From the NCBI GenBank assembly GCA_032718475.1, contig JAUCBJ010003334.1, positions 1-62,439 of the forward strand: a stretch of DNA of 62,439 nucleotides, read 5' to 3'. The first letter of the stretch is position 1; each line of letters starts with the position of its first letter. The notes beneath the pieces were generated by a model, which made no database searches, was not told the origin of the DNA, and saw nothing but the letters and a program-made list of their open reading frames with translations. Both the position numbers and the translations under genes were made by a program. Below, piece by piece: positions 12,886 to 62,130 of this stretch. The stretch comes from Nemertoderma westbladi. Its lineage: Eukaryota; Animalia; Xenacoelomorpha.

Positions 12886-13015
12886 TATATTATATATATC
12901 ACGCTACACTGAGTAGCAGTATCGGTAATTAATTACTAGGCTAGCAGTTAATACTGAATTACTAGACTTGCTTAGACTGTAATATAGCAGTAGGTATACA
13001 ACTGTACAAACAAAC

Positions 13016-22676: not shown

Positions 22677-22758
22677 GGGGCAAAAGAGGAGTAGGCAGCG
22701 ACGCCCGCTAGCCTAATATATACAAACTCATTATAATATTGATAAACTCATAGCAGAT

Positions 22759-27012: not shown

Positions 27013-27090
27013 CTGTTTAGAGTATTTTTATATTTTAGAAACTGTGATTTGTTATATTTTATAGACTTAAATCCCATTTTCTGGGAGCGG

Positions 27091-28249
27091 TGTAAAAGCT
27101 TTTGCGTAATTAACCGGTTATTTTCCCTTAAAGTACTCTGTAGTTGGTTTGCCAGGCATAAAAAGGCCGTGTCCTTGCTGTACTTGTGTTTTAGAGGACA
27201 TAAAAGTCATTTCTTCTGTATTTGTACTTTAGAGGACATAATCCGCAATTTCGGGATGCAATAAGCTCGATACTCTTGAAAACAGTGTCGCTACCATGAC
27301 GACGGCTAACAGCTGATATTGCCACGTCGACATTTCTTTGTTTCTTTGTTCTCTCTTTGTTCGGTTGACCAATCAGAGCGTTTTTTGTCTCTGTGTTGGA
27401 GGTGGATACAGAACTCAGTAATTCAGTGTTATGTTTTTGCCCAGAGCCTAAGAACATCGGCTTTTGGCACCTCCGTATATCAGCATTCTTTAGCTTTACA
27501 TTAGTAGGCTTAATTATAGAACGTATATCTGTTATCGAGTCATCTCAGTTAACAATCCATAACTTACTTACCATATCTTATTAATATTACTGCTTTTACT
27601 GTCGGTTATTCGTTATATTTGTTGATGAAATATTATATCGGAATACTGATCAATAATCAGACACCCCACCTTCTTGATATACTAAAGGTTAGAGAGACCG
27701 GTTACAGATAAACGATTGCGACCTATGTTAAGTGGTTTGAAGTGAATCTAATGCTATTTGATAAGCACTACATGGGTCCGTTGCTGTTCTCTTTATATAT
27801 GATAAAATTTAGTGAAGGTCGGCAGATTAGTGTGCAGTATTGTGCAGCATTGTGTATGAGTGTAACTGATAACAAAGCATCTCCTAAAGAATGCGCCATA
27901 TACGTTAATCTATAGCCTTTTCGTTGTGTCTAGTTTAAGTCATAACTCTGTTTACATATTTAGAGCGCCACGTCCTAAAGGAACTGTTAATATTTCCCGA
28001 AAGTGAATAATATTTGTCAGAGATTATATATTACGATCAGTCGAATAATACGGTAGGCTTACACCATCAATCATTAAGCTTCCGAATTCAGTCTCCCGGG
28101 TATATCCAGCGGGTGAATGATTGCGCATAGACTGGCTTCGGCTAATGTAGTGTGTCAAATACTCGTCATAAGCTAAAGAATATATATCATCCAAAAGACA
28201 TTCTAATTTTGGCAGGTTAAACTGTCAAAGGTCTTCAAAAGCGCAAACA
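27091..28249 (+). repeat. 3' LTR of BEL/Pao element 1
   Basis: Preceded by GGGAGCGG; followed by TSD GTTTC. Confidence 0.97.
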
Positions 28250-28299
28250 GTTTCAAATTATCGATCTGATAATCTATATGATATCTATAACTTACATAG

Positions 28300-29352
28300 T
28301 TGAAATAATAGTATGCGGTTTGTTATGTACCTCTACATATTTTGCGCCTTCTTTATTTTTCATTCATTCATCCATTTATAATTTACGGGTTAATTGTATG
28401 GGGTAACGCGACCCATTCAATAATTAATCCTATCCGCACTAAAATTAATAAATTACTGCGTGCAATCACGTTTAGTGATAGATTTTCCTCCACTGTGCCT
28501 ATTTACAAATCTTTGAATATTTTACCTATCCAAGCGCTCTACAAATATCAGGTATTAATATTTATGTATAATGTTTTAAAAGGTAATTGTCCAAGCGATT
28601 TAAAAAAGGTTGTTTTCTAGAACTGACGCTGTCCATTCCCATAGAACACGGTCGGCTAGCCAAAAAATTTTCTATATTCCATCAAATTGTATTCTTGTAT
28701 CTCAAAGATTACTAAAATATCAGGGTCCTTTTTTGTGGAATTTATTGCCTACTTCAATTAAAGAATGTCAATCATTAAACATATTTTCTGCTAAACTAAA
28801 AAAATATTTAATTAATGAACTGTAACTGCGGGGTCTGGTGCTTTGGTCAGTTTTCATTGCGGTGTCGCTAACGGCTCGTATTATTAACGTTGTTGTCTAT
28901 TCCGTTATCCACTTATAATTTGGGTTTAGTTTATTTCTAACTTTGCTCCTTGTGTGTAATTTTTAATTCAAATGTCGTGCCTACGTACAGATGGATCGTC
29001 ACAATATATGTATTCATATATTTCTACGTGCTTTAATTTTAATTATATATAACGTATACGGTAGTAATTCTAATAAACACAATACGTACTGTATTAAAAT
29101 CGTCAATAATCTTCTAAACGGCGCACAGCCACGTAATAGCTTTGCTATATTGCTGTGTTGCCCTTTTCACTATTACCTAGTTAAATTTTAATTTCACATT
29201 AATTTTAAAACTTAACGCTCCGGCACTTATTTCCAGGAAATTAACTGTTTGTAATATACGTAATTTTGATTGTAATTTTTTTTTGTTATGTATATTGTAT
29301 GTACTTTATATATATATTAGTGAAATAAATAAATAAACTGAAACTGAAACTG
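28300..29352 (+). mobile_element. 3' fragment of CR1/L2-group LINE, frameshifted, (AAACTG)n tail
   Basis: LYFSFIHP..YGLIVWG and GPFLWNLLP motifs; AATAAA followed by ACTGAAACTGAAACTG. Confidence 0.85.
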
Positions 29353-30780
29353 GTATATTGAATCGGTGGACTGACCATCCATTGACTGAGGTGCTTCAAA
29401 GCGGTTTTGAACTTCTACTGTGTAAGCAACCTTTACTGCATAACAACCAACAAACCAAACGAATTGTTGTTGATTCACACCAGATATCTATTGCCCACAC
29501 CTTCCACATGCACCAATACACTGTTTCTAGAACTGCTTTCTATTGCATATTAAATACTGAATTAGCACAAAATCGAACCAGCCTAAATACAAATAGCACA
29601 GCAAGACTGACTGCTTGCTACATACTACTGCACTGCAATAACAGTATTACGCCCTACATACATTAGCTAGGGACCCCCCCCCCCCCCCCTTATTACAAGA
29701 TACTTTTAGCTTTTACTAGAGCGGCCACGCACCCATTATTATTATTATTAATTACAGAAACCTGGAAACATATTCCCTACAACCAACGTTCCATGATGCA
29801 AGGAGTTGCAAGATAACTGTTGATTCTATATACCCCAGTCAACATATGAATATTGGCGCTCGGAGGATTACATTCTATTGAACTTGGAATCGGATTCCAT
29901 TGAACTTATATTATGTATAGTATATGGCTGAACATATGGGTGTGGTAACCCAAAAAAAATTTAGAGAGTTTTATAACCAACTTTATTTTATTCAGTATTT
30001 TATTGCCTTTTTACTCCTGAATGTTGTCATTTCATAGCTCTTTGAGGAAAAGAGTTTTGGAAGAAACAAAGTTTATTAGAAACGATTACAATGTCCGTTT
30101 ATTGCTTACCTACACGACGTTCTTAGGTAATAATTTGATAATGGTTTTTGAAATATTCCATAACTATTTAGTAATTTGATATTAATTAAATACCGCATGC
30201 ACAATGCACATTCAACGTTAAGTTCAATGTCGGTTGTGGGTCGGCCACGTACATGGGTCCGTTGCTGTTCTCTTTATATATGATAAAATTTAGTGAAGGT
30301 CGGCAGATTAGTGTGCAGTATTGTGCAGCATTGTGTATGAGTGTAACTGATAACAAAGCATCTCCTAAAGAATGCGCCATATACGTTAATCTATAGCCTT
30401 TTCGTTGTGTCTAGTTTAAGTCATAACTCTGTTTACATATTTAGAGCGCCACGTCCTAAAGGAACTGTTAATATTTCCCGAAAGTGAATAATATTTGTCA
30501 GAGATTATATATTACGATCAGTCGAATAATACGGTAGGCTTACACCATCAATCATTAAGCTTCCGAATTCAGTCTCCCGGGTATATCCAGCGGGTGAATG
30601 ATTGCGCATAGACTGGCTTCGGCTAATGTTGTGTGTCAAATACTCGTCATAAGCTAAAGAATATATATCATCCAAAAGACATTCTAATTTTGGCAGGTTA
30701 AACTGTCAAAGGTCTTCAAAAGCGCAAACAGTTTCAAATTATCGATCTGATAATCTATATGATATCTATAACTTACATAG

Positions 30781-31833
30781 TTGAAATAATAGTATGCGGT
30801 TTGTTATGTACCTCTACATATTTTGCGCCTTCTTTATTTTTCATTCATTCATCCATTTATAATTTACGGGTTAATTGTATGGGGTAACGCGACCCATTCA
30901 ATAATTAATCCTATCCGCACTAAAATTAATAAATTACTGCGTGCAATCACGTTTAGTGATAGATTTTCCTCCTCTGTGCCTATTTACAAATCTTTGAATA
31001 TTTTACCTATCCAAGCGCTCTACAAATATCAGGTATTAATATTTATGTATAATGTTTTAAAAGGTAATTGTCCAAGCGATTTAAAAAAGGTTGTTTTCTA
31101 GAACTGACGCTGTCCATTCCCATAGAACACGGTCGGCTAGCCAAAAAATTTTCTATATTCCATCAAATTGTATTCTTGTATCTCAAAGATTACTAAAATA
31201 TCAGGGTCCTTTTTTGTGGAATTTATTGCCTACTTCAATTAAAGAATGTCAATCATTAAACATATTTTCTGCTAAACTAAAAAAATATTTAATTAATGAA
31301 CTGTAACTGCGGGGTCTGGTGCTTTGGTCAGTTTTCATTGCGGTGTCGCTAACGGCTCGTATTATTAACGTTGTTGTCTATTCCGTTATCCACTTATAAT
31401 TTGGGTTTAGTTTATTTCTAACTTTGCTCCTTGTGTGTAATTTTTAATTCAAATGTCGTGCCTACGTACAGATGGATCGTCACAATATATGTATTCATAT
31501 ATTTCTACGTGCTTTAATTTTAATTATATATAACGTATACGGTAGTAATTCTAATAAACACAATACGTACTGTATTAAAATCGTCAATAATCTTCTAAAC
31601 GGCGCACAGCCACGTAATAGCTTTGCTATATTGCTGTGTTGCCCTTTTCACTATTACCTAGTTAAATTTTAATTTCACATTAATTTTAAAACTTAACGCT
31701 CCGGCACTTATTTCCAGGAAATTAACTGTTTGTAATATACGTAATTTTGATTGTAATTTATTTTTGTTATGTATATTGTATGTACTTTATATATATATTA
31801 GTGAAATAAATAAATAAACTGAAACTGAAACTG
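30781..31833 (+). mobile_element. Second copy of the same LINE fragment, created by the tandem duplication
   Basis: Near-identical to 28300-29352. Confidence 0.85.
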
Positions 31834-33159
31834 GTATATTGAATCGGTGGACTGACCATCCATTGACTGAAGTGCTTCAAAGCGGTTTTGAACTTCTACT
31901 GTGTAAGCAACCTTTACTGCATTAACTGCATAACAACCAACAAACCAAACGAATTGTTGTTGATTCACACCAGATATCTATTGCCCACACCTTCCACATG
32001 CACCAATACACTGTTTCTAGAACTGCTTTCTATTGCATATTAAATACTGAATTAGCACAAAATCGAACCAGCCTAAATACAAATAGCACAGCAAGACTGA
32101 CTGCTTGCTACATACTACTGCACTGCAATAACAGTATTACGCCCTACATACATTAGCTAGGGACCCCCCCCCCCCCCCCCCCTTATTACAAGATACTTTT
32201 AGCTTTTACTAGAGCGGCCACGCACCCATTATTATTATTATTAATTACAGAAACCTGGAAACATATTCCCTACAACCAACGTTCCATGATGCAAGGAGTT
32301 GCAAGATAACTGTTGATTCTATATACCCCAGTCAACATATGAATATTGGCGCTCGGAGGATTACATTCTATTGAACTTGGAATCGGATTCCATTGAACTT
32401 ATATTATGTATAGTATATGGCCGAACATATGGGTGTGGTAACCCAAAAAAAATTTAGAGAGTTTTATAACCAACTTTATTTTATTCAGTATTTTATTGCC
32501 TTTTTACTCCTGAATGTTGTCATTTCATAGCTCTTTGAGGAAAAGAGTTTTGGAAGAAACAAAGTTTATTAGAAACGATTACAATGTCCGTTTATTGCTT
32601 ACCTACACGACGTTCTTAGGTAATAATTTGATAATGGTTTTTGAAATATTCCATAACTATTTAGTAATTTGATATTAATTAAATACCGCATGCACAATGC
32701 ACATTCAACTGACTAAACTAGAGCAATATCTAGAGAACCTATCTCTCTACTATAGTTTTGATGGTGTCTACACTAACATCATTGTGAATCAAATTCCTAT
32801 ATTGCATTGATATCCTGATCCTGAATTAATTTCAGTCAGCCTTCAAATCCTCACCAATATCTCGAGAACCAATCACTCTAGTATTGTTTTGATTATGTCT
32901 ACAGCCACTAAATAGGTTATAGTGGTTCGAATCAGTAGGAGAAAGAAATGAGTAAAGCCCCGTTGACATCCAATGGTGTGTGAGCGGTAAAGTAGTCCGG
33001 CGGTCTTGAAGCAGTAAGCTACCCGGAGCCTGTTCACACCCAACGGTAACTGATTGTCTATCTGTAGACTGTGAATTCAACAGGAAATTACATTAATTGT
33101 TTTAACATTGTTTAAATGGGCTGCGGTAAACCGCGCGGTTTAGCGCACAACTAACTGTT

Positions 33160-33267: not shown

Positions 33268-33300
33268 TTAGATAAGTCGGTGAACACATGACTACAACAA

Positions 33301-33365
33301 TGGATTACCGTAAGAGGCAGTTCTGTATGGAGCCACCATACAGAACTGCCTCTTACGGTAATCCA
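33301..33365. repeat. Perfect 30-bp inverted repeat with 5-nt spacer
   Basis: TGGATTACCGTAAGAGGCAGTTCTGTATGG-AGCCA-CCATACAGAACTGCCTCTTACGGTAATCCA. Confidence 0.95.
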
Positions 33366-33616
33366 GTATGGAGTTCATGTGTTCATGGAGTCCAGTATGG
33401 TATTCAGTATGGAGGCCAACTGTAAAATATATGTGGCACCCATGGTCCACACTTATACTGTAATAAAGTCATTCATGGACCATGGAGGCCACCTATAAAA
33501 ATATACTTAGCTTCCACGGTTCAAATAATAAACAAGTAACATAATTATAATACTGTAGTATATTAATGTAGTATTTTAGCGCGAGCTAAATTTTGTTCTA
33601 ATACTTTCTTGTTTAT

Positions 33617-37680: not shown

Positions 37681-38503
37681 AGTTGGCATACGTCAGTACG
37701 TGAATGGACGATGACACCGTGCGGTATTCACAGTGCAAAAAATAGGTAAAAGCACTAAACTGCTAAATGCAGAAATGCATTAAAGTTGAAATTCTGATAT
37801 TAGGCCAATTAGCTAGTGCAGTAGTGACACTTTACCTTTAGATGCCGGACCGGTCTGACGGTCTAAGGCCTCAGCAGCGACTGCTTGACGGTACGGTCAC
37901 TCTTGACTGCATTAGGCCTAATCACCCTAGAGCTATTCAGCTATAGGCAGATAGGCCCTATTACCTTATTACAGTATTAGGTCAGTAGGAAGGAGGGGGC
38001 CTACACCTACACCTACTGCTGTAGGCCTACCAGCCTACTGTATTGTCACTTTGTATTTGGTATTCGGCCTATGTTCAGGTAGGGCAGTCTGGCAGTAGGG
38101 GATTAGTTGAGTTGACTTTGACAGATATAAAGCTCAATTCTCTGTCAGCCTTTTCTGTCTTTAGGTAGGTACTGTCAGACGGTAAGCTACCGGTACTTGT
38201 CAGCATGTTAATCGGTGCGGTACCTACCTTTTATTGTGTGTATCTGCAAGCAAACCCTCTGTCAGTCTTTCGGTACCAGTATATATACTGATATATATAT
38301 ATATTTATATTATGGTGCTTTGTTTGTCTACTAAGGTAGGCTAGGCTAGGTTTAGGCTTGAGACTAACCAACTACTGAACTAGCCCTAAAGCTGTAAAGT
38401 ACCAGTAACAAAACCTTTTTTTCGTGTAATTTTTAATACTGTAACAAGTACTTATACCCTGATACCTGTCTGCCTGTGGGCCTGCTACTTATAGTCAATC
38501 ATA

Positions 38504-41500
38504 ATGGCTACAGGAACCGGTAGTAGTGATTTTACCAGTTCCACAAATCCTAATGAAGTAGATAAAAATAATTATGTAGCCTTTCCCTCACGGGAAGGGA
38601 ATGATTCTATAGACATAGAATCTCAAAGCCCTATTTCGCCATCCACTCCAGACAGTCCTAGTGATAGGCTCAACCTGGCTGGAGCTGGATCAATTCAGAA
38701 TGTTGAAAATCATCCGTCTGCTCCCATAAATAGTGGAGCTTTTAGGGCCACCATTGGTGGACACAGGGCTCATTTCACCCGAAATTACAACTTGTTTTGG
38801 AAGGATTTCAACGAAAGAAATGTTACATTTTCATTGATTTTAGAAAGACACAAAAAAGCAGTGGCAATAATAGAAACAATTCACAGTTTATATATTAAGG
38901 TGATAGATGAAGTTGAGAGAATGGGCGATTTTCAACAATCCGAGAAATTTAAATCGGAATTTAAAATAGTATATAGCGATTTAAAAGGAAAGTTAAACAA
39001 AATAGAAATGGCTTTAGAACAATTTAAACAGGCCAATTTAGGCTTTAATTCCGATGACCTGCCATTAAATGAAGGCAGTTCAGAAGGAAAATCCATCTCT
39101 CGTAAAGATTCCTTAACCACAACATCCAGGGAAACAATAATACCAAAAGCGCAAAAGGCTATTGCTGAAAAAAGGCGCAGAGAGTTACAATACAAGCAAC
39201 TTGAAAATATATCAGGACTTGAATTAAAACAGGCTGCCCTGGACCGTCAATTGAAGTTAGAACGGGCAAAAAACGAGGTGGAATCGGCAGATTTGGATAG
39301 TCAAATTGCAATAGAAGATGACATCTGGTTACAAGAACAGCGCGGCTCTAACAGAGGTTCAGGCAGTGAAGTAGGATCTTGGTTGCAAGGAAAAGATAAT
39401 GTATTCCTGCAACAGCAACAACACTCACACACTGACACTGCCCTTGGGCTAGGTGAATGTGATATACCTGAAGCAAGACTTGAAAGGGGTATAAATGAAA
39501 ATACTTCCACCTTTATAGATAACGTTAGGCCTGATCCATTATGGGATGTCAATGTTTGTAGGCCGAGAAATGTCAACTTTAATTTACCTATATGTACCGG
39601 TATTAGTGACATTTTTGAGGAACCTGCACCAGAGTTAGGTTTAAATACTAATGATGTGCATAGGGCAGTGGGTTAGGCAATCAAACTGCGATAGGTCTAT
39701 TTTAAGCCCTAATGCAGAAGAGTATATTCCTCATTCGCAGATACGCCATACTAATACATATACTAGTACCAGTACTTCCAATTATACTGGAGATAATAAT
39801 TACTTTCCTCATGTTCAGGTCTCTAGTGCTGTTAATTCCTTTAGACCAATACCATCAATAACTCATTCTTTATATACAAATCATTATACTGATACCAGTA
39901 GGCCTATATATTCAGATATTAATGTGAATTTGAATCATGGATCTGGATATAATGATCTACCTGTACCTAGGTCTTTATTAGATCACCTAAATGAACCATT
40001 ACGCAGCAGTATAATGAGTGTTAAATGTTCTGAGGCACCTTTATACAGTCCTAGAAACTCAAATTCAATATTTAACGCATTACACAGTACTCCTCATTCA
40101 GATATGGGAGTACTGCCAATTAAATTCAAGTAATAATTTAGAGCAGTCATTGCATCCAAATGGTGAAAGAGCTACAACATCACAATATAATGTCTATAAT
40201 CAAACCTATAATGTGGGTTATGGTTATAATACAACACAGACACAAATTAGTACTGATGCGGCTCGTCTCTGCAATAATCCTCTAGTGCAGGGTCAATATG
40301 GTATTAACAGAGGTCCTACCCATGCAGTGTCTGAAAATAATGCTGGAGGCATAGAGAGATTGCTGCAGAATAACAGTATGTACTATCATGATTTGTATAG
40401 AAACAGTTCTGTTCACAGAATGGATGGTTTAGTAAATCCGCCATTTATTCCTCAGACAGCAAGTCAAAGTGTGTCAGACGGATTTATTAATAGAACACCA
40501 AACCATTCTGGAACAGCTAGTAATCAAAATTCTGAACTTATATCAGCCTTTCAAATGTGTAATGCATTAAATATTTCTGCTATTGAGCGACTAAATACAA
40601 TGATGTCATTACCAAAAATGGAACCACAAAAGTTTAATGGGGAAACCGGTTTATATATAAATTTTGTTTCTTCATTTATATCTTATATCGAATCAAAACG
40701 GCTATCAGAAATGGAGAAAATGATGGCTTTAACAACGTATTTGGGACCCGAGCCTCTTGAATTAGTCAAATTTTTTGTGGGAATACCAGGAGGTTATGAA
40801 GCAGCATGGAATTTGCTTCATGATCGTTACGGTCATCCCAATGTGATAATCCAACAAATAATAAATGAATTAACTGAAAAGGTTGATTTGCACTCTAATA
40901 ACTACACAATTAAAAAAGAGAAACTGAGAGCATATTCTGATAAAATAACCCAAAAAGTATTAGTACTACGTTACTGCTTCAGAAATTAACTCTTCGGATA
41001 ATTTAAAGAGAATTGCAGTAAATTTTGAAGCTTGGATGTATGATAAATGGAAACGCACAGCTCGATCAATTCGTCAGAGGTTTGGTAGAGAGCCAACATT
41101 ATTCGAACTGACTGTGTTCATAAAAGAAGAGTCGGATATTATGAATGATGCTGTATTCAATGAGAGACCCGGAGGCAATCAACAACAACAGTCCTCCAGC
41201 CAACAATCCAGATCGAAATCAGGAAGTCAAACTCAACCTATATCTAAATCAGGCGAACATTCAACTAATCCAATGCATCCTCTTCGCATAACAACTATGA
41301 ATACAGCAGTTGAAGATGTGGCCCTTAATCATACTTCGAAAGTGACGCCATCTGTGATAAATATTGGTGTTCCTAATTCTACAACACATCAGAGAAATCA
41401 GCCATCTGGTGGACAAAATAAACCAAATAGCATGCAGAATGACAAGGTGAGAGACAAAGCAAATGTAACCTCTCAACCACATCCGAGCAATTCTAATATT

Positions 41501-44500
41501 ACTAGTGCTAATCGTAATAATACATGTGCTCCGGTTAGCAGTAAAACTGATTCGGGTTCAGCCAGAACAAAAACGACTAAATTCACTTGTTCTTATTGCC
41601 AAGAGGGACATACATTATATCATTGTCCTAGTTATAATACCTTGGATGTAAAAAAAACAATCAAATTGGCTATTAAATAAGAGGTTATGTCTAAATTGTA
41701 CGAGCTCAGGTCATGAGACTGATCAATGTCCAATTAAAACTTATAAGTGCAGGATAAATGGGTGTACAGAAGCACATAATAGAGTTTTACATTGGGTCAT
41801 AGACCATCTCAAGACTTCTGGTTCGATCGGTTTGCATTTCTCTTCTGTCAGTAAAAAAAACGAATATGAATCACAAACAATTAAAAGTAACAAATGTAAT
41901 TCTAATTCTACTGTCTGGCTTTCAGTCGTACCAGTTTGCATTTCTATAGATAATAAATGTGTAGAAACATATGCACTACTTGATACTGGTTCAACAACTA
42001 CGTTGATTGATAGAAGTATTATTGACCAGTTGGATATTGCTGTAAATTTAGAAGTAGATATTAAAGCAAAGGGTGTATTTTCAACTACCTTTCAGAAGGT
42101 TGGCTCTATTAATTGTATAATAACTCCGGTTTCAGATCAAAATGTTAGCGATCCTGGATTTAAAATTACTGCTAAGGATGTATTAGTTGTTAATAACTTC
42201 AAATATAAATTTGCAAATGATTTGAAGAAGGTTGATTTAAGATCAATACCTGAACTGCAACCATATGTCCCACAATTAAATAGACAACCGACTGATTACC
42301 CCTATGTATCAATGCTTATTGGACGAAATTTCCAGGAAGCTCTTTGTGAGACCCCAATTATTGTGGGAGGTCCTGAAGAACCCTCCTTGATTAGAACACC
42401 TTTTGGTCTTTGCCTAGTGGGAAAAATTACTTTAATCTCTACTTTAACTGATAACTCTGGTCTACAAACGCAAGTATCTTTACATCATATCAAACATACT
42501 TGCTTAGATTACGACACAGTATCTATGATTAAACAGTCTCTTGGTATAGAGACTGTAATAAATCCATTGGATAGTGAAGAGGTTGTTATGTCTAGAGATG
42601 ACCATGAGGCTCTAAAAATCCTCCATCAAACAACTATCTTAAAAAATGGTCGCTATTGTGTATCAAAACTATGGAAAAAGCGACCACCAACTCTTATTAA
42701 TAATTTACATTTGGCTAAAAGAAGACTCGAACAGTTGCTTAAACGTTTAAATAAGGATGAAGGTAAGTATCATATGTACCATAATCAAATAATGGAGTGG
42801 GTACAGAAAGGTTATGCGATCAAGATGGATCCAAATGCATTGACATTTACAACAGGACAAACTTATTATTTAATCCATCATTTCGTAGTAAATGAAAAAA
42901 AGCCAGGATGCATCCGCATTGTAACCGATGCCACAGCTGATTTCAAAGGCATGTCTATGAATTCGCAACTGTATGCAGGTCCTTCTCTCATTAACTTATT
43001 AACGGGTGTATTGTTCAGGTTTCGTCGTGGCAGCATTGCATTCGCATGTGACATTGAAGCAATGTTTTTGCAGATAGAAGTCACAGAAGAAGACAAGGAT
43101 AGGCTGAGACTACTATGGAAATCTCCTGAATCACCTGAATTACTTGAAGTTTATAAGATGGTCAGACACCCTTTTGGCCCTAAGGATTCTCCATGCATTG
43201 CCAACTATGTGGTTAAACAAACTGGCATAGATAACCAAGATAAATACGGTGAAGAGGTAGCAACTGTCATTGATGAATCATTTTACGTAGATGATGGATT
43301 ACGTTCAGTGAATTCAACCAGTGAAGCCATTACTGGCAGATAACTTGAAAGAAGTTTTAGCTGCAGGTGGGTTTACTCTAAAGAAGTTTATTTCTAATGA
43401 TAAAGGTTTATTGCGTCATCTTAATGAGGATGAACTGAGTCCAATTTTAAACCTAGATTTAGATGAATTACCAGTTACCAGGGCGCTTGGCGTAATCTGG
43501 GATACCAATAGAGATGTGTTTACCTATCAATATAATATCAAAGGACATTAAGGACCTTAAGTACATTCCTGCATTCTTTCATTATTACGTCAGTCACTGC
43601 AAACAATCACTCATAGCGTCATAGGCAGATAGGTAAGTGTGTTAGAGTCTGAGAGTACATGTAGAGCTACCAGCATACTGCTAATAGATAAATGTAAACT
43701 ACTAAGTTACATTGATCGCTTGTTGATTTAGTGCATTTAATACTGGCCAAGATTAGCAAGTAAATCACACAACAACCAATCAAACAGAACATCCCATAAC
43801 AACTTAAAGCATTTATAAAACAGGCAATATCATTGGATGTTCACAAAATGATCGCTTGGGTTTTTACTCTCATGTCAATGGGGGGGCTATTGCTACTGAA
43901 TCTTGTGACGACGATTACTATACATTTATGCTTGAACAATATGTTAATGACGTTAAATATGATGAATATTTACCAGTTCAACCCATTAATACATTGTGTT
44001 CTCAACTTCAAACAAGGACTAAAAGAGTGCCAATGTTTCAACGCGTTAAAGATTTGACAATCGATCAACGTTTAGATTACTTGATTGATACGGAATCCAA
44101 CCTAACTAAACTCAAGATTAAGATAGTCTGGCTCATTAGATTATCCAAGTTTGCTGTGAAAGGTACTGCTAAACCTCATATTATTATGGCAGAAGAACTA
44201 AGACATGCAGAAGTGTGTCTGGTACGATATGCACAGAGGCGGGAATTTCTTCAGGATATTGATAGAATTTCTAGTGGCAAACCAGTCACGCGTAAAAGCA
44301 AGCTTAAGAACTTAACACCTTTTCTCGATGGCGATCACATCCTTCGTGTTGGGAGTAGAATAGAACGTGCCTTGGTTCCCTATAGTACAGCATATCCAAC
44401 TATTCTCCCAGCACAGAGTTCTATAACCAGGGCAATAATCTGGCAAACTCATATAAAGTGTGGCCATATGGGATTCTCTGTAGTAGCTAGTGAGATTCGC

Positions 44501-45275
44501 AAATCCTTTTGGATTCTAACAGCTCAACGAACTATTAAGACTTTACTTACAAAGTGTTTCACTTGTAGGAAAGTGCGTGGTCGATTTCTTGAACAAATAG
44601 AAGCTCCACTACCAGTAACTCGTTTGACAGCATATCTTCCTCCATTTACATTTGTAGGTGTCGACATGTTTGGCCCAATGAATGTGAAATATGCTAGAGG
44701 TACTATTAAAATATATGGGATATTATACACTTGTCAAAATTGTCGAGCTATACACTTAGAGTTGGCTGTAAATAAATCAGCTGATGCCTTCTTAAATACA
44801 TTGCATCACTTTTGTAGCCGACGTGGCAAACCTCAACAAATAATAAGCGACAAAGGAACAAATTTTGTTGGTTCTGACTCGACAATCAAGTTGCTTGAGC
44901 AATTTGCCAAAGAGGAGAGTGTTAATGCATTTTTAAATAAAAATAGCATTGATTGGAAGTTTGTCGATACTGATTCGGATGTAGATTGGTTATTTCTCAC
45001 TCCATATGCCCCTCATACTGGAGGTTTTTATGAGCGTTTGATTCAGTCAACCAAACGTATATTACTTGCTTCGTTAGAAGATAACTTGGTTACCGAAGAT
45101 ACTTTAAACACTTACTTAGTAATAGCTGAAGGCATAATGAATAGTCGACCATTGACTGCCATTAGCAGCGACCCTACCTCGCCCAAACCACTGACTCCCC
45201 AACACTTACTACTCCAGAGGGAAGCAAGAAACATCCCTGTCGGTGAGTCTGATGATACGGATATCTATAGTTCAT
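38504..45275 (+). pseudogene. gag-pol: Decayed BEL/Pao gag-pol (element 2): multiple stops and frameshifts, RNase H missing, integrase truncated
   Basis: KFNGE gag, CSYCQEGH knuckles, LLDTGS, CDIEAMF/YVDD, HIKCGH..CFTC, DMFGP, SDKGTNF, GGFYERLI. Confidence 0.92.
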
Positions 45276-45282
45276 TGATGTT

Positions 45283-46853
45283 ATGGAGTCCTACACCGTC
45301 GCTAAGTTCATATGTAAAACTCTCGATAACCTCATTACGGCGGTTCCTTGTTCCTTTATTGACTACGAGTGGAATGAAGTTATCGGCCACGCCTTCAAAG
45401 CGGTCGAGAATATTACACCGGGAGAGACAAAAATGCTCACCGTCATCGATTCCTGGGACGAGAATGGACCGTTCGACATCCCTACGATTACCGATCTCCT
45501 CGGTGCGGAGGAACCACTCATTTCCTCAGATGGGGAAGAATTATGGCTACAGGAAGGTGTTCTACTGTCCACCCCAAAGCGACAGCTCGATCCGGAAATC
45601 GCGTACGAACTGGCTGCCAAATGGGTTGCCTCGGCCGAACCTGCGACGGAAGCAGGCGTTTCCACCCCACTTGGCTCTGGTAGCCCCGCGAGGGAGTTAG
45701 TCACTACCTTCGCGTTGAACGACTTCGGCGACATATGCCAGAGGTTATCCCCATATCCTTTCCCGGGTGGCGAAGACTGGTCTTCGGAGATTCCGAGTAC
45801 CAGCACCCAATGGACCCGCTCAGCGATACTGGTCGAAAGGGTCCCAGCGCTGCGCCGACTCCCGAAGATCTCCTCGGAATCCCTCCGTCGAAAGCCCCGG
45901 CACCTCTTCGCCGACCAGCGGTGGCAACTACCCCCTCCATTCTACAGGATCCTATGTGACTAACCCGATGGTACGCCGAGCAGACCGAATGGATCTACCG
46001 CCAGAAATGGTCGTCCGAGATGAGACCGGCAGGACATAAAGAAGGTTATCGGAACGAGAACCTACTACGCCAAAGCCCAGCCTTTCGCGGGCTACAGGCC
46101 ACAGCGAATATTCAAAAGAGCGACCGACGACTCGAGTATTATGTCGGCGTCCCAATCCCGATCTTCTTCGGTCGGGAGATGCAGTTAGAGATATGCGCAG
46201 ACTGCGGTTCGGAGCAGTGCCCACACGGTAGAAGAAATCAAGTAACCGATTTGTGCCTACAGCTCCACGGGATTCTATATTGCCCATACTGCGCGACATC
46301 GGGACATGATGTTTCAGTTTGTCCAACCCTCTATAACCTCTGCACAACTTGCGGTTTCCGTAGACATTCCGCTAGCCCCCGCTGCAATATAAAATGTCCT
46401 ACAAAGGACGTTACCGCTATGGAAAATTTGGTTATGTTCGAAACCTACGCAAATAGCCACATAAAGACCAAGGTACGGAGAAACGCTCGGAATATCACGC
46501 AGGAAATGGCGTGCGGGTATTTTGCCTTCCCGGAACGCCTCCATACGACAGCGACGTTACCATTCCATTACGTGGATCTGTTGCTAAGGGCCGGATTATT
46601 CGGCCCATTCGAGATCCTTAGACGCTTATATTCGTATAAACAAGAGTACGGTGTCGGAAAGTGGTTCCTAGAGGCGAGCAACACCGAGTTGGAAAGACGG
46701 ACCGATATGATCCCGCTGCCATCGAAAGGAAGAGCCGCCAGGAGACAAGCCGAAACGTTGCTCACGATGGATGTCGATGCTCCCCTACCAGCTCTAGCGA
46801 TCGACGAGAGTCGACGGGCGAAGAGGGGAAAGGCGTATCGGAGCAAGAAATAG
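45283..46853 (+). pseudogene. Frameshifted, 5'-truncated accessory ORF with zinc-knuckle cluster
   Basis: CADC, CPYCATSGHDVSVCPTLYNLCTTCGFRRH..C, FETYANSH..R...GYFAFP and a basic tail align by eye with the 23578 ORF C-terminus. Confidence 0.75.
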
Positions 46854-47026
46854 AGGATCGGGATATTCCAGGAACATTTATATTGAACATTTATTTTATA
46901 TATATATTAACTCTAGGCCAAATTAATCAAGACTATGCAATATTACAATTTTGGGTTTTTTATATGGGAAATGACCTACGCAAACTCGATCTACCGATAG
47001 ACCTCACGAAGGTCATTGGGGGGGAC

Positions 47027-48214
47027 TGTTCGCGGTATTTCAACTTTTCCTAACGCGAGTTGAATATTTTTTGGATTTATTTAAAATGATTATTCCGATA
47101 TCACTACTAGGTGCGGGAACATGGGTTTTGGGCACACTCAATGAACTGGGGGCGATTTATGGGCGAATATTGGGGCGACTTACGGGGTACAGGACTCATT
47201 TCATGTATATAAGGGCCAGGGGGGGAAGGAAAAGTTAAGCAGTATACAGGTTTACCTGACTACTATTAGGCCTAGCCAACTTCCTGCTGCCTGTAGAGGT
47301 GGATTTGGTAACTCGCTCGGTCTAAAGGACACGGGCTGCCCTTAGTGGTTCCTGACCAACAGCAGTTATTACGAGCCTGAAAAGGACATCGGAAAGTCTG
47401 CTGCTTGTGTCAGGGATTTGCGATGGGAAACGACGACAGACCCCTAGCCAAGCCGTACTGGTTCTCGATGATCAATCTCTTCGGGGTTCGTGAGGGGTGG
47501 TACGGACACGCGAATGGGTCGACCGACTAACAGAGGAAGAGTGCGACGACGACTGCCTTCCTGGAGTGGGTGCCACGACCAGTGTTAGTACGAGCCTGAA
47601 TAAGGACTCGGAAAACCACCAACCGTTGGGGCTCACAACGGGCTGACAGACCCCTTAGCCAAGCCGTACTGGTTCTCGATGATCAATCCCTTCGTGGTTC
47701 GGGAGGGGTGGGACGGACACGCAACGGGGTCGAAAGACAAAGGACTGGACTCTACTGGCCTACCGACTGTTCGGAGCAGTTTCTCGGCTGCCGAAGCGAC
47801 TACGAGCCTGAATAAGGACTCAGAAAGCCTAGGTGGTTGGGTCTCTGCGATGAACCGACGGACCCCTAGCCAAGCCGTACTGGTTCTCGATGATCGATCC
47901 CTTCGGGGTTCGGGAGGGGCGGGACGGACACGCGAACGGGTCCACCGACATGACAGACTCCTAGCCAAGCCGTACTGGTTCTTGATGACCGATCAATTCG
48001 GGGTTTGGGAGGGGTGGTACGGATACGCGACAGAGTCTACCGACTGGACCGACCCTTAGCCAAGCCGTACTGGTTCCTGATGACCGATCCCTTCGGGGTT
48101 CAGGAAGGGTGGTACGGACACGCAACAGGGTCGACCGACACCAACACTACGGTACCAAGACTAGGACCGAGGGAAAATCGGGGAACATTAGTTAGGCTAA
48201 AATCTGAGCGAACA
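47027..48214 (+). repeat. Putative LTR (end at 48214, or alternatively 48343)
   Basis: Follows a PPT; TGTTCGC...GCGAACA 7-bp inverted ends; TATATAA at ~47206; alternative end GTTACA at 48343. Confidence 0.6.
47350..48133 (+). ncRNA. Array of structured RNA repeats (five ~83-nt A units, three B units; order B-A-B-A-B-A-A-A)
   Basis: Nested stems with a UUCG-loop apex and compensatory changes between copies. Confidence 0.75.
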
Positions 48215-48419
48215 GTGGGTAATTAAATAATATACTGTAGGGATTTATATTGTCGTGTTATATTATTGTGAATAATTTGGTGTATATTGGTTTGGGGAAG
48301 CCCAACTTATTCTCAATCAAGGTTCAACTGTAGGGAAGTTACATTAAAGAGTATATCCAACCAATGAAGCTTTTCCTCAACCGCAATCTTGCATTTAAGA
48401 ATGTATTCCTTCTCCACAA

Positions 48420-51400
48420 TCAATATCCGGTGACTGGCCGGGATTGCGTGGTCTGAAAAGTTCCGCCTCCAGCATCGGCGTTTTCCCCCATAGTGTCGGG
48501 AATAACGGCAACAGCGATGGTGATGGAATGGAGACAGTACGCTGTCTCTCCGTCGTCTACGAGGTCGTCGGGTGTCGGCTGGTCTACGGGTGACCGGGAC
48601 AGGGAGTCGGGAATGGCGTGAGATTTACCCTTGCACCAGGAGGTAGTGAACTGGTATGGCGCCAGCTTGGATTTTAGTCGTTGTATACGGGCGTTTTCCA
48701 CTTCCAAGAACGATTTGCAGTCTAAGATGGTGACCAGCGGTTGATGGTCAGTGACCAGGGAGAAGGTGGGGAGCCCGAGGACGAAGTTGCGGTATTTTTG
48801 GATGGCCCATACTACCGCTAGAAGTTCCAACTCAATAGTGGTGTATCGAGACTCTGTGGGTGTTATAAACCGAGATCCGCATTCTATAAGGCGCCACTCT
48901 GTCCCGTGGCGCTGGAGAAGGGCGTAGCCGAGCCCATTGAGCCGAGAAGCGTCAGTTACGAGCTTAGTGTCGGCGGAGACATCGAATGGGGCCAGAACCA
49001 GGGGTGTAGTTAAGGCCGCCTTGGCGGCGTCGAATGCGCGATTGTGGTCGGTTGTCCAGATGTATGGCGATTTCACCGATAGGAGCGGGCGTAGTGGTAG
49101 GAGCATCTCGGATATCTCTGAGGAGAAAGGAGCGAGTTGTTCTACGAGCCCGATGAAACTTCGGAGATCGGTTAGAGTTTCTGGACGAGGGAAGGAGGCT
49201 ATAGCGGAGAGTTTTGCGGGGTCGGCGTGGATGCCGTCCGTTCTGACCAGGTAGCCGCCGAATTTTACCTGGGATTGGGCGAGCTGCACTTTACCGGGGT
49301 GCAGGCAAATACCTTTTTCCCTGCAGCGTTCGAGGAAACGGTGGATGGACACCAGATGTTCCTCTAGTGTGTCGTCGTAGAGTAAGACGTCGTCGACGAT
49401 CTTTATCATCCGAGGAAGTCCCTCGAGCGCCGCGTCGCCCCGTCTGTTAAACTCATCTCCGGAAGAGATAAGGCCCATCACACTCCGGGTGTGTTTATAC
49501 CGCCCCCATGGCGTGACGAACGTCGTCAGCAGCTGGGACTCAGGGTCAAGGGGGACCTGCCAGTATCCATGGGCGGCGTCGAAGACTGAAAAGTACTTTG
49601 CAGTCCGCGAGATTTCGGCGATTTTTAGACGGGGGTTTGGTGTCGGGTAGTATGGCCTCTTTACTTGGGAGTTCAGGCCGCGCAAGTCCACGCAGAGGCG
49701 CAGTTTTCCGCTTGGCTTGCGTGTTACGGTAAGCGGGTGGGCCCAGTCGGTGGGTTCTTCCACGCGCTCGATAATATCGCGGCGTTCTAGATCGTCAAGA
49801 AGAGTTTTTACTTCGTCGCGAAGTGCGATGGCGATGGGTCGAGCGCCTTTGACATGGTAAGGCGTCGCACCCTCCTTGAGTACGATATGCATCGCGGTAC
49901 CAGGGATGGTTGGTAAGGGGGTTGCTTCGTCGTCGAAAACGTCCCCGAATGAGTTGAGGAGGTCCCTGGCTGAGGGCGCGCTGTCTGCGCCTGTGGGTGT
50001 TGCCGACTTCGTCTCGCGAACCGTAGCCGAAGAAATCGGGAGAACCGCAGCGGGCTGGGGGAAACTTGACGGGAGTATCCCCAGATCCATGCAAACCGAT
50101 TTGCTAAGGATCAGTCCCTGCGTCTCCGGAGAGATAACGATTTCCGTTGTAGCGGAATTTTGGCCGGAGGAGATGACGGCGGGTAGGCGACCGCGAGTTT
50201 GTATCGGTAGTCCGTCGGCCGCGACGAGATCCATGCTGGAGGAAGGTAGTAGATCCCTCCCGACTCCCCCAAGTTGGTGGAACAAGTTCTCGTTGAGGAG
50301 TGTAGCTGCCGCGCCGCTGTCCGGAAGCGCGCGTTTTATCATGCCGAGTCGAATACCGGTAGTGGAGTTAGTGAGGGTTACAGCGAGGTAATCCAGTTTG
50401 CATACCGCCGCGCGGTATTCTAAGCGGTTGATTGAGTCGCGGTAAAGCACCGTGTTTGTAGAAGAGGGTTTCTTTGAGGATCCGCTGGATCGGCACACCT
50501 TTCGGAAGTGCCCCTTTTTGCCGCAGCCGCTGCAGTTAACTTCGCGGGCAGGGCATGCAGATTTGTCGGAGTGCTTTACTTGCCCACAGTTTCCGCAAGT
50601 GTGGGCGCGATTGTTCCCCGGCCCAGTGGAGGAGGATCTCCAGGGATGCTGGGAACCGGTCGATGGGGGCGTCGGAGCACCCTGTCGCATTGGAGAACGG
50701 CCGCCGCGCTGTTTGTATTGGGAGATTTTAGAAACCGAGCGCGAACTCCCTAGTACTTGGGTGTTTTTAGCGCTGGACTCCCAGTTCTGGCAGATAGTGC
50801 GAGTTTCTTCTAGTGAGGGTCGGGGTAGTAATTTCAGGAGTTCTTGTTGAGTCTCGGTACAGTACAGCCCAACGAGAATCTGAGTGACTATCTGGTTGTC
50901 CCGGCACTCCGCGCACAGTTCTGCGAGTTCGGCGAGGTGTTTTAATGACCGATAGAAGTCATCGAAAGTTTCGGTAGCGCCCTGGCGGCGTCTGTGGAAT
51001 TGCATGCAGTCGAGAGCGATGCTGCGTTTACCGCGGAGGTGTTGCTGCAACCCATCGAGAATCGTCGCCGCGTCCACCTCGCCATTGTCCGGATCCAGTT
51101 CCAGGGTGTAGCGGACAACGTCGTGTAGGCCTGATCCCAGGGCGGTGAGGAGTGTGTATACTTGTTCGCTGCGTGGGAATGTTTCTGCGCTCTGGCGGCG
51201 GAGATTGCTGTCCCAACTGTCCCGCCAACGGCGGAAGGCGGACAGTTCGACCGAAGTATCAATGCGGTCTAGATTTCCGATATCTATGGTGCGGCGACGC
51301 GTGGGGGCCGCCTGTGGGGGATCGGGTTGTCCTATGGGATTATCGGCGAAGTGCGGACGGCCGAGGTGGGCGAGAATGTCCGCTAAACGGCGGTTAGCAG

Positions 51401-51725
51401 CCGCTTGTTCTTCCCGATGTTCGCGTTGCTGCTCTTCCAAACGGCGGTTCGCGTTTTCCTGTTGCTGCGCCATGAGTTCCAGGAGTTGCGCCATGCTGGG
51501 TTGGCCACCGGTAGCCGCGTCGGTTTCCTCGAAGCGGGCGGGTGTATCGGCGATCCGAGCGTTGAGTTTCTTGCGAAGCGTTGCATCGGATGTTTTCGAT
51601 GTCGTTGGGATACTGGCGTCAGCGCAATACTGAATCAGTTTTGAACGATCCAACGACGCGACCTCGGCGGGTGAGAGGTCCGACCAGCAAGGTTCCTCAG
51701 CGGAAGAAGCATCGGAATCCGCCAT
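48420..51725 (-). CDS. gag-pol: Gypsy (Mag-like) single-ORF Gag-PR-RT-RNase H, truncated before integrase
   Basis: Two CCHC knuckles, LPDSGA, DAAHGYWQ, IVDD, TDAS/ELE/TDH, DSLSR; frame then runs into unrelated sequence. Confidence 0.92.
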   Translation of the reverse strand: MADSDASSAEEPCWSDLSPAEVASLDRSKLIQYCADASIPTTSKTSDATLRKKLNARIADTPARFEETDAATGGQPSMAQLLELMAQQQENANRRLEEQQREHREEQAAANRRLADILAHLGRPHFADNPIGQPDPPQAAPTRRRTIDIGNLDRIDTSVELSAFRRWRDSWDSNLRRQSAETFPRSEQVYTLLTALGSGLHDVVRYTLELDPDNGEVDAATILDGLQQHLRGKRSIALDCMQFHRRRQGATETFDDFYRSLKHLAELAELCAECRDNQIVTQILVGLYCTETQQELLKLLPRPSLEETRTICQNWESSAKNTQVLGSSRSVSKISQYKQRGGRSPMRQGAPTPPSTGSQHPWRSSSTGPGNNRAHTCGNCGQVKHSDKSACPAREVNCSGCGKKGHFRKVCRSSGSSKKPSSTNTVLYRDSINRLEYRAAVCKLDYLAVTLTNSTTGIRLGMIKRALPDSGAAATLLNENLFHQLGGVGRDLLPSSSMDLVAADGLPIQTRGRLPAVISSGQNSATTEIVISPETQGLILSKSVCMDLGILPSSFPQPAAVLPISSATVRETKSATPTGADSAPSARDLLNSFGDVFDDEATPLPTIPGTAMHIVLKEGATPYHVKGARPIAIALRDEVKTLLDDLERRDIIERVEEPTDWAHPLTVTRKPSGKLRLCVDLRGLNSQVKRPYYPTPNPRLKIAEISRTAKYFSVFDAAHGYWQVPLDPESQLLTTFVTPWGRYKHTRSVMGLISSGDEFNRRGDAALEGLPRMIKIVDDVLLYDDTLEEHLVSIHRFLERCREKGICLHPGKVQLAQSQVKFGGYLVRTDGIHADPAKLSAIASFPRPETLTDLRSFIGLVEQLAPFSSEISEMLLPLRPLLSVKSPYIWTTDHNRAFDAAKAALTTPLVLAPFDVSADTKLVTDASRLNGLGYALLQRHGTEWRLIECGSRFITPTESRYTTIELELLAVVWAIQKYRNFVLGLPTFSLVTDHQPLVTILDCKSFLEVENARIQRLKSKLAPYQFTTSWCKGKSHAIPDSLSRSPVDQPTPDDLVDDGETAYCLHSITIAVAVIPDTMGENADAGGGTFQTTQSRPVTGY

Positions 51726-51763
51726 CGTATTGGGAGCTTAGTTCTGAAGTTCAGTACTGAAGG

Positions 51764-56559: not shown

Positions 56560-57228
56560 TTTTTTTACTCTCGTTATTTTTACTCTCGATATTTTTACTC
56601 TTGATATTTTTATTCTCGATATTTTTACTCTCGATATTTTTACTCTCGATATTTTTACTCTCGATATTTTTACTCTCGATATTTTTACTCTCGATATTTT
56701 TACTCTCGATATTTTTACTCTCGATATTTTTACTCTCGATATTTTTACTCTCGATATTTTTACTCTCGATGTTTTTACTCTCGATATTATTACTCTTGAT
56801 ATTATTACTCTCGTTATTTTTACTCTCGATGTTTTTACTGTCAATATTTTTACTCTTGATATTTTTACTCTCGATATTTTTACTCTCGATATTTTTACTC
56901 TCGATATTTTTACACTCGATATTATTACTCTTGATATTATTACTCTCGTTATTTTTACTGTCGATATTTTTACTCTCGATATTTTTACTGTCGATATTTT
57001 TACTCTCGATATTTTTACTCTTGATATTATTACTCTCGTTATTTTTACTCTCGTTATTTTTACTCTCGATGTTTTTACTCTCGATATTATTACTCTCGAT
57101 ATTTTTACTCTCGATATTTTTACTCTCGATATTTTTACTCGCGTTATTTTTACTCGCAATATTTTTACTCGCAATATTTTTACTCGCGATATTTTCACTC
57201 TCGATATTTGTCATGTCTCGATATTTTT
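56560..57228. repeat. 15-bp minisatellite (TTTTTACTCTCGATA)n, about 44 units
   Basis: Directly visible; produces spurious ORFs in several frames. Confidence 0.97.
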
Positions 57229-59409: not shown

Positions 59410-60295
59410 CGGAGCCCCTAAAGGGACATGAGAAAATTTTTTTTTTTTTTTCGCTAACTCGTGCGAACGACTTAGTATGTCGTGCGAACGACTAACTAAG
59501 TCGTGCGAGCGACTTAGTATGTCGTGCGAACGACTAACTAAGTCGTGCGAACGACTTAACTAACTCGTGCGAACGACTTACTAACTCGTGCGAACGACTT
59601 ACTAAGTCGTGCGAACGACATACTAAGTCGTGTGAACGACTTAACTAACGCGTGCGAATGAACGACTTAATAACTCGTGCTAACGACTTACTAAGTCGTG
59701 CGAACGACATAGTAAGCCGTGCGAACGACTTAACGCCTTTAACGACTGAACGCGCTCTGTTAATATCGACGTACTTTAACTTAGGCCGACAATACAACCG
59801 ACATATTGTAGCAAATTATAATATCTTTAACATATTAATTTTACTTTAACTTATTCAGTAAATAGTTGTATTATCTACGGTCAGCGCTGCTAGATAAACT
59901 GATTATAGTGTCAGGTGTTGTTGCTGTGTTGATGAACAACATTCCCATCTCACCATTGTATCAAACCATTGTTTTGGGGGGAGGTGAGATAGGTCCTACT
60001 ATTTAGAGTATTGTAGAATATTGTGACTCCGCTACAAAATTGTGACTCCACCACAATATTCGATTTAAATAAAGTACGTACCCGTATTTCACTTTCAGGC
60101 TCTCGTTTCATATTTCACTCAGTCGCTTACTCTCGTTCTTAATAAAATTAATTCGAAAAAGTAATGCGTAACATCCCTAATCAAACCAGTGGGTGCATTG
60201 ATGGATATTCCCGGAAAATGATTTGGTTGAACGTGTATAACGTAATATTAGTATGTCGTTCGCACGACTTACTAAGTCGTTCGCACGACATGTCT
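59410..60295. mobile_element. Foldback-type non-autonomous DNA element with ~20-bp subterminal repeats
   Basis: CGGAGCCCCTAAAGGGACATG left end, (CTAAGTCGTGCGAACGACTTA)n at 59455-59735, inverted copies at 60250-60295 ending CATGTC. Confidence 0.7.
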
Positions 60296-60352: not shown

Positions 60353-62130
60353 CAGTCCCTATCTCATGCTGAATATAATTTCTCAAACTGGGTATCATTT
60401 GCATTATTTCGTTATTGCATTATTAAGACCCGGCGAGGTTAAACTAACTCAAACTAAATACTGGCGCCATGGTTTGAGTGATTTTGACCTTCATTCTGTG
60501 CAACACTTAGCTTTCCTACCTGTACCTGATGGTTGGACTTTGGTTGAATGAGACACGGCATTGTCGTATTCCAAGTAAGTCTCAGTCTGCTACTGGAGCC
60601 CTTTAATTGCTGGGCTGCGTTACATACTATTACTGGCACTGTACTTTGTTTGAATATAGTTACTGTCCTATGTTAATTTTATTGGTGTGGTGCTTTACAA
60701 GACATGTCATTGTAAAATATTAATTAATAGGGTTATATTTAATTTAGGTACAGTAGTGGCTCATGGCCTTCTGCGCGTATTAGTTACTAATTTTACAAGG
60801 ACAATGGCAGCTTTTATAATGTCCATTATTTATTTATTTTCTAAGTTGTGTAGGAAGGGTAGGTGTTGAATGCACCTCATCCACACCCACACACCCCGAC
60901 CCCCTCCCCTTTTATATTTTAAAGTGTAGATAAGGCGCCACTAATTGAATGCCACCCCAAATTAGATGATTTCACAAACAAAAAAAAAATTTTAGCACCA
61001 AATATATTTTTTTGTAGTACCAATTTACATCCCCCAATTTTGAATATCTCACCAAAAACAATTATTCATCCCCAAAAAACAATAATTAATTCCCACAAAA
61101 ACAATTTTCCATCCCCCAAAAAACAATTATTTATCCCCGAAAACAATTATTCATCCCCCAAAAACAATTATTTTTCCCCGAAAAACATTTATTCTTCCCC
61201 CAAAAACAAAATATTCATATCCCAAAAACAATTATTCAATCTCCTTAAATTAATTACTTGTCAACCAAAAACAATTCTTCCAGCACCAAAAATTTTATGG
61301 AAAATGTAATTAGGGCCTAATCAAATTCATTCATTATTAAAAATTTCCATAAATCAAACAAAATGTTTAATATTATACCCCTTATACCCCTATACCCGAT
61401 CCCTCGGGTGAGTACAAAACAAAGACCCAATTATAAAGACCTGCATAATCTTGTAACATGTTAACTTTCGTTTATTGTTTTGGTTCCCGCAACACGCCTC
61501 TGTAACCTGCTCCTTTACTAACCAGCTCCTTTAAATGGCAATAGGACCTAACGCACTTTGGGACCTAACACTCTTTGGGTCCTAATGCGACTTTATCTCT
61601 TTGTTTTTTACAGAACAGAACTCAACTTTGGTCAGAACGTTTGTCAGAACGTCAGAACGTTTGTCAGAACGTCACCCGACGATCCCCGTAACAATAGTCT
61701 GCAACTAAGAGTCTGTTTATTTTGGTAGAATTTTTTATTATTTTGGGGGAATAAGCAATTGTTTTTGGTGTTGAAAAATTGTTTTTGGTGTTGAAAAATT
61801 TATTTTGGTGTTTGAATAATTGTATTTGGCGTGACTTTATTTTATTTGGTATTGAATCATTTTTTTGGGGTCACATTATTTCATTTGGTGTAAAATATTT
61901 TTTTTGTGAAATTTTCATCAATTTTGGTATGTCTTTAATTGGTAGCCTAAATAAAGTTCATAATTAAATTAATAAAATAATGTTGATATGTATGAGTCAA
62001 ACATATTTTATAAATGTAATCGAGAAGAAATACCTTCCGTTTGACCTAGTAAGAGTGAGTAAGAGTGAGTCACTAAGAGTGAGGTAAGAGAATAGTTTGA
62101 GAAACGGTATCTAGAATGAGATAGGGACTG
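60353..62130. mobile_element. Non-autonomous Tc1/mariner-type element
   Basis: 15-bp perfect TIRs CAGTCCCTATCTCAT/ATGAGATAGGGACTG flanked by TA on both sides. Confidence 0.75.
60931..61950. mobile_element. Nested decayed foldback element with ~21-bp AT-rich repeats in inverted arms
   Basis: (CCCCAAAAACAATTATTCAT)n left arm versus (TTGTTTTTGGTGTTGAAAAA)n right arm. Confidence 0.55.

Follow-up and report, generated by a model that had tools for sequence, protein, structure and literature searches.

An undescribed two-module array of predicted RNA hairpins in a BEL/Pao LTR of Nemertoderma westbladi

The window analysed here, a 62,439-nt stretch of the Nemertoderma westbladi genome (contig JAUCBJ010003334.1), carries on its forward strand a degraded BEL/Pao retrotransposon whose LTR holds a series of repeated predicted RNA hairpins. 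The gag-pol region of this element (38495-45700, +) is broken over several frames and yields matches to DUF1759, a protease-like domain and the integrase zinc-binding and core domains. The DUF1759 domain of its gag and a pol order of BEL type place it among BEL/Pao elements, and the relatives of its integrase region are BEL/Pao polyproteins of at most 40% identity, which carry Peptidase_A17 and DUF5641. A domain search of the window found no DUF5641 3' of the integrase core of the array-bearing element. Near 45270 its integrase frame ceases to match BEL/Pao integrases, unlike that of a second element of BEL/Pao type found in the window, and this loss likely reflects a deletion within the element that reaches into the extra ORF which follows.

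Extra ORFs are documented in LTR retrotransposons, according to passages of PMC5408684. The 3' part of the one found here (45960-46853, +) encodes a Cys/His zinc-knuckle cluster and a basic tail; the zinc-knuckle protein that an earlier, sequence-only reading of this DNA had named as a possible partner of the hairpins is thus indeed encoded by the element. Across nine aligned rows, among them the extra ORF from the window's other BEL/Pao element, ten Cys/His positions are invariant. Among 1.84 billion representatives, four credible relatives were retrieved (E 1.5e-8 to 1.1e-5; low-complexity match P0125 left out), all of them unnamed, and a word-based protein search with the extra ORF returned no relatives. 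The AlphaFold model of the ORF has a pLDDT of 36, too low to be informative.

A polypurine tract (47018-47026, +) is followed at once by the TG that opens the LTR at 47027. This LTR (47027-48214, +) lies 3' of the last ORF of the element, in 3' LTR position, and the claim that the hairpins stand inside an LTR is supported by this opening. Its 3' end is either at 48214, where a 7-bp terminal inverted match closes it, or past 48350: contigs of the same family span 48084-48251 and 48206-48345 and continue beyond 48350. Depth falls at 48321-48350, but contigs cross this position, and the drop was put down to an edge effect after having first been taken for the LTR boundary. No second, upstream LTR copy of the array-bearing element occurs within the 62,439-nt window. 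The TATATAA noticed earlier upstream of the hairpins is present at 47206-47212 (+), the sole TATA-type match on the forward strand between 47029 and 48430, and may serve as a promoter; just past the start that it would set, a long hairpin is predicted at 47247-47307 (+; -19.9 kcal/mol). If the LTR extends past 48214, an ATTAAA followed by a GT-rich tract (48222-48227, +) is a candidate poly(A) signal, and its use would place the array within an R region of about 1 kb. In the window's other BEL/Pao element, the LTR has no poly(A) hexamer.

The second BEL/Pao element (9664-28249) is better preserved, with 1159-bp LTRs 99.7% identical, a GTTTC target-site duplication and a 2.2-kb leader. Its extra ORF region (22717-27012) carries the same zinc-knuckle cluster and a stretch that looks like a DEDD exonuclease by eye, as does P0124, a likeness to which database searches gave no support. 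Two-copy repeats are found in its leader (about 290 nt; 11103-11683) and between pol and the extra ORF (165 nt; 21671-21971); on the forward strand, both the 165-nt repeat region and positions 10800-11100 are predicted to be more stably folded than their shuffles (z about -3). A tandem duplication of about 2.46 kb with 99.3% identity (27769-32709) takes in part of its 3' LTR. Other elements crowd the window: a Gypsy-type element with 114-bp terminal repeats of 96% identity at 1-4250 (+), and a separate truncated Gypsy-type gag-protease-RT-RNase H region at 48420-51737 (-), which ends without an integrase and adjoins the BEL/Pao LTR. An inverted repeat of 50 bp, 88% complementary with a 5-nt loop, lies at 33281-33385, and satellite arrays occur at 56562-57228 (15 nt), 59454-59734 (21 nt) and 61052-61906 (20-21 nt), the last two having inverted partners about 600 nt away and resembling foldback or DNA transposon ends.

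Both a repeat finder and the sequence itself bear out the five hairpin copies reported earlier, which we call module B, at 47439-47520, 47649-47731, 47860-47943, 47955-48038 and 48050-48133 (all +). The repeat finder delimits 94-nt repeats starting at 47434, 47645, 47856, 47951 and 48046, hence spacings of 211, 211, 95 and 95 nt; copy 4 has no module A (described below) in front of it. Since spacings of 211 and 95 nt break the frame, the array is not a peptide repeat, a possibility that was considered and rejected. Pairwise identity between copies is 82-92%. The internal-loop word TAGCCAAG, described as invariant, is identical in 5/5 copies, and the 19-mer that runs from it through the middle stem occurs five times with 0 mismatches, against 0.01 expected. 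A covariance model built from the five copies retrieves only those five in the window (95-117 bits; next match E 0.086), and the second BEL/Pao element, while sharing the zinc-knuckle domain, lacks the B motif. Within the copies the 5' arm is invariant and the 3' arm more variable, the conservation of the 5' arm exceeding what pairing requires. As for the suggestion that the array would be near the 5' end of a transcript, it would hold for the upstream LTR copy of the element, provided that the TATA is used, but not for the 3' copy present here.

RNAalifold models B with 27 pairs arranged, from the outside in, as a 6-bp basal stem, a 2-bp helix, an 8-bp stem, a 7-bp stem and a YCGA/UCGG helix, with CAAG/AYAC, G/GGG and UGA/GGU internal loops and a variable apical loop of 5 nt. 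The invariant internal loops are TAGCCAAG opposite AYACGC, and UGA opposite GGU. In this model 94.1% of 135 cells are paired and the covariation score is matched by 4/500 shuffles, compared with 92.7% paired (80% at the apex) and 28/500 for the pairing drawn by the sequence-only reading; related rows, here five plus three paralogs from one decayed copy, can beat such shuffles even without structure. All five copies fold into a long hairpin on the forward strand, with z of -1.6, -0.4, -1.1, -2.2 and -4.3 for copies 1-5, so that copies 1-3 alone fold no better than shuffles (z -0.4 to -1.6). Each of the five folds better on this strand than on the minus strand, and the model holds 20 G-U cells on the forward strand against 2 A-C, an excess that would favour the forward-strand RNA as the functional form. 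The minus strand was rejected as the functional one on these two grounds.

The covariation itself is thinner than had been claimed. Three of the 27 modelled pairs do change on both sides (p 0.034 for double changes within the same copy), but most of the basal-stem variants listed earlier are the same stem quoted at different lengths. The terminal basal pair reads G-C, A-U and C-G in copies 3-5, by way of transversions, and the basal C-G of copy 4 becomes U-A at non-CpG sites; these are the two double-change pairs that survive the caveat of CpG decay. The third lies in the upper stem, whose quoted sequences match the DNA, though a U-U mismatch of copy 1 had been omitted. In copy 5 both halves of the double change, one on each arm, are of CpG type; its 3' letter, at 48102, is rare in family contigs, at about 1% of the depth in X1, with cross-mapping between copies possible. 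The middle stem has one mismatch in two copies, as noted before, namely copies 2 and 3. The proposed CCC-TTCG-GGG apex does not hold as a consensus, being exact in 2/5 copies, with cUUCGg in 3/5 and a broken stem in copy 4; a conserved C-UUCG-G capping a stem is therefore not found among the five copies. Sixteen of the 27 pairs never vary and one more departs only through unpaired cells, which makes all of them uninformative.

A second repeated module, A, was missed by the earlier reading. It precedes B copies 1-3 within the 211-nt unit, at 47345-47421, 47563-47636 and 47774-47849 (all +). Its core consists of an AUUA, AGUA or ACUA strand (copies 1, 2 and 3, respectively) opposite GAA, a bulged A and a GAAA or GAAUA loop; copy 1 combines a long basal stem with a bulged-A hairpin and a GAAA loop (z -4.1). 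We take the internal loop of A to resemble a motif of the loop-E/sarcin-ricin type. While the A2 and A3 cores are 93% identical, the basal arms are only 28-50% identical between copies. Each 3' arm nevertheless pairs best with its own 5' arm (3/3), and two of the three 5' arms prefer their own 3' arm: own partners give -25.5, -17.1 and -22.3 kcal/mol, swapped partners -10.9 to -17.5. Neither CpG decay nor recent duplication can produce free stems around a fixed core, and these predicted pairings between diverged arms would be the clearest indication at this locus that RNA structure is under selection. Selection on the structure of the forward-strand RNA, proposed earlier on B copies only, thus finds moderate support, most of it from A. 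The spacers of the array are occupied by smaller predicted hairpins.

The stretch is represented in five DNA runs from three studies, under one organism label. Contigs mapped in four runs (3280, 1231, 1974 and 61), with summed depths of up to hundreds of thousands in the three larger ones, so the family is high-copy, and this abundance would make a covariation test easy, given an assembly. Eleven differences between family members fall in A among the 40 listed of 163 rows: three are unpaired, and at the eight paired or mismatch positions six keep or form a pair and two break one. In B, ten differences were recorded among the same 40 of 163 rows, and the seven on paired columns all keep or form a pair (7/7; 56% expected per transition, p 0.017); this counts as soft evidence, as a contig derived from one copy can align to a different one. 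CpG decay is active in the copy analysed here, since 10/18 positions with T/A in it and C/G in other copies stand in CpG context (background 24%, p 0.004), and such decay is enough to account for one double change of B out of three. Rare family variants have an altered 5' arm in the middle stem of B and joints that skip 1-4 units, suggesting a variable copy number among LTRs.

The array was also compared with known RNA classes. The Rfam scan that had been proposed as a check gave no family at gathering score for the window, with only chance matches at E 7.4 and 9.1, no match for 47760-47960, and for the array neither a family nor a ribozyme match at E up to 10. ARAGORN found 0 tRNA genes and the Rfam tRNA model no match. 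The core hexamer-plus of hammerheads occurs in one of the five B copies. Of four CTE loop words compared, one occurs once, in a spacer (47734), and none in the loops. Also considered and rejected were loop B of the hairpin ribozyme, whose words are absent and which has no Rfam match, and likeness to SRP, SECIS/K-turn or H/ACA RNA, again without a match in Rfam. Passages of PMC11620745 describe twister-sister-like (lantern) loop strands as G-C-U-C-A-A opposite G-C-(U/C/A)-A-G; the first of these, the cleavage-strand motif, is absent from both strands of 47029-48430. Pattern scans for homologues matched viral contigs 18, 2 and 0 times, metagenomes 0 and 44 times and prokaryote genomes 7 times. 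These loci were rejected as chance, the best of 64 reaching E 0.55 and the best of the other 7 scoring 10.9 bits where true copies score 95-117, and no homologue of the array was thus found in the viral, metagenome and prokaryote collections. As far as these collections reach, the motif is known from one family only. Searches of the open-licence literature, in its main texts, found no account of a structured RNA array in a BEL/Pao LTR.

What lies in this LTR is a real RNA array of two modules, as yet undescribed and of a familiar functional kind. We tentatively favour, with slightly less than even confidence, the view that it would act in cis on the genomic RNA of the retrotransposon, as a multivalent set of protein-binding sites. 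The observed grounds are the repeats, their location in a BEL/Pao LTR, the tolerance of the stems to change and the forward-strand G-U bias. Transcription would start from the TATA and place the array in the R region or leader of the genomic RNA, where the LTR sequence is predicted to fold as a chain of independent rods, three A+B units and two further B units. The stems would serve only as a scaffold; a protein would read the invariant internal loops of B together with the loop-E-like core of A, the copy number giving avidity for nuclear export or packaging of unspliced RNA. The first candidate partner is the zinc-knuckle ORF of the element or its Gag, the second a host export or transport protein. 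The array probably grew by tandem duplication, first of the 211-nt A+B unit and then of a 95-nt B-only unit, and template jumps of the reverse transcriptase could give such duplications. Copying from arm to arm is disfavoured, since it would probably have erased the internal loops and wobbles, which are kept. Should the array bind the accessory protein of the element, a lineage of retrotransposons would join the complex retroviruses in this style of post-transcriptional control, and a function could be assigned to a zinc-knuckle family that has no name so far. A bolder version, which we regard as unlikely, would make this a Rex/RxRE-like system of BEL/Pao: the zinc-knuckle protein of the unnamed family would bind an eight-rod array in a 1-kb R region and control export or packaging, A and B being two new RNA motif classes and B possibly derived from a tRNA-like Pol III gene.

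Other explanations compete with a protein-binding array. The repeats could have expanded neutrally or under relaxed constraint, by tandem duplication of an old hairpin region in reverse transcription; the copies would still pair because they are young (82-92%) and because transitions often leave G-U pairs. This is rather improbable, for the arms of A have been rewritten to 28-50% identity and yet pair around a kept core, three different pairs occupy the terminal position of B, and the 19-mer is invariant in 5/5 copies. In a DNA-level reading, the invariant 19-mer and the A core would be transcription-factor sites of an LTR enhancer and their inverted symmetry would be secondary. The location in an LTR and a 5' arm conserved beyond the need of pairing agree with it, but the array lies downstream of the TATA, the G-U bias is on one strand and the flanking arms change on both sides, and we find such an enhancer very unlikely. 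An invariant 5' arm facing a more variable 3' arm could point to precursors of small RNAs. The B rods, each with about 35-38 stacked steps and, in 4/5 copies, CGAC after it, would then be cut by Microprocessor and Dicer to release a small-RNA family from that arm. Under the Microprocessor rules, a 4x4 loop and a 2-bp helix stand where a lower stem is expected; cutting would moreover destroy the genomic RNA, and rare family variants alter the B 5' arm. Such precursors are hardly probable here, even if LTR clusters of miRNAs are known in foamy viruses (passages of PMC3993851). Conserved loops on free stems are, finally, the usual signature of a ribozyme, and an undescribed self-cleaving one could reside in B, in A or in A docked on B; hammerheads reportedly occur in the LTRs of plant retrozymes (PMC4918200). 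It is the least probable of these readings: no Rfam ribozyme matches at E up to 10, the twister-sister-like motif is absent, the hammerhead core appears in 1/5 copies, and eight active cutters in an LTR would presumably shred the genomic RNA.

The B units might also be Pol III cassettes, that is, degenerate tRNA-like genes that would make small RNAs or recruit TFIIIC, as in Helenus and Cassandra or in foamy viruses and BLV. They do have a 7-bp acceptor-like stem, an A box at position 8 and ACC after the stem. A perfect A box (TRGYNNARNNG) is present in 5/5 copies. Its first base follows the basal arm after one nucleotide, as it does in a tRNA, the arm being 7 nt long, or 8 nt in copy 2; the B box (GWTCRANNC) is present in 3/5. 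Over both strands of the entire window, the B copies hold the only A boxes with a B box 10-100 nt after them, and in a post hoc count both boxes appear in 0.055% of shuffles of one copy. The three pairs nonetheless amount to one event duplicated, and by our estimate from counts, chance alone would yield roughly one pair of this kind in the window. Their gaps are 14, 14 and 18 nt, where passages of PMC12498455, which give the consensus of both boxes, put the typical gap at 30-60 nt; no T4 run that could terminate transcription occurs between 47130 and 48371, and neither ARAGORN nor Rfam sees a tRNA. With gaps of 14-18 nt and no T4 to follow, Pol III is kept only as a rival, and a decidedly unlikely one, to the protein-binding array.

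Several known systems offer points of comparison for a protein-binding array. The SL-C and SL-D packaging hairpins of gammaretroviruses are repeated and bound by the knuckles of nucleocapsid. Like them, the array presents repeated stem-loops downstream of a start, with flanking single-stranded GAC words and encoded zinc-knuckle proteins; unlike them, it is conserved in the internal loops of its 80-nt rods and is placed inside the LTR, not after the primer site. The extra ORF downstream of pol recalls the ORF3 types of bdelloid elements in PMC5408684, from which it differs by a CCHC-like cluster and an unnamed family, the passages of that source describing no LTR RNA array. Helenus, Ajax and Cassandra have Pol III-promoter LTRs (passages of PMC10886601), and foamy viruses and BLV carry small-RNA cassettes (passages of PMC3993851 and PMC12498455). 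The array shares with these systems, as far as those passages describe them, A-box and B-box-like words in an LTR and, with BLV, five hairpins in a row. It departs from Pol III-promoter LTRs in that its element is an autonomous-type BEL/Pao with a TATA, the box gap is short, terminators are absent and the whole is not tRNA-like.

The RxRE of HTLV-1 and the RcRE of HERV-K are RNA response and export elements of the LTR or 3' region of retroviruses. Their likeness to the array extends to the accessory ORF with a basic tail encoded by its element. The array differs from them and from the CTE in that the comparison made, with CTE loop words, showed no sequence likeness in its loops, that it has five copies of one rod type and three of another, and that its host is a BEL/Pao element. 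With all three it shares structured RNA in or near an LTR and conserved internal loops on helical rods (for the CTE, passages of PMC4338338). The CTE of MPMV, bound by NXF1, is itself a duplicated binding loop, and the same passages of PMC4338338 report that BLAST searches of Drosophila and C. elegans turned up nothing resembling a CTE. By analogy, the array would work like RxRE and RcRE or like the duplicated CTE of MPMV, as a member of neither.
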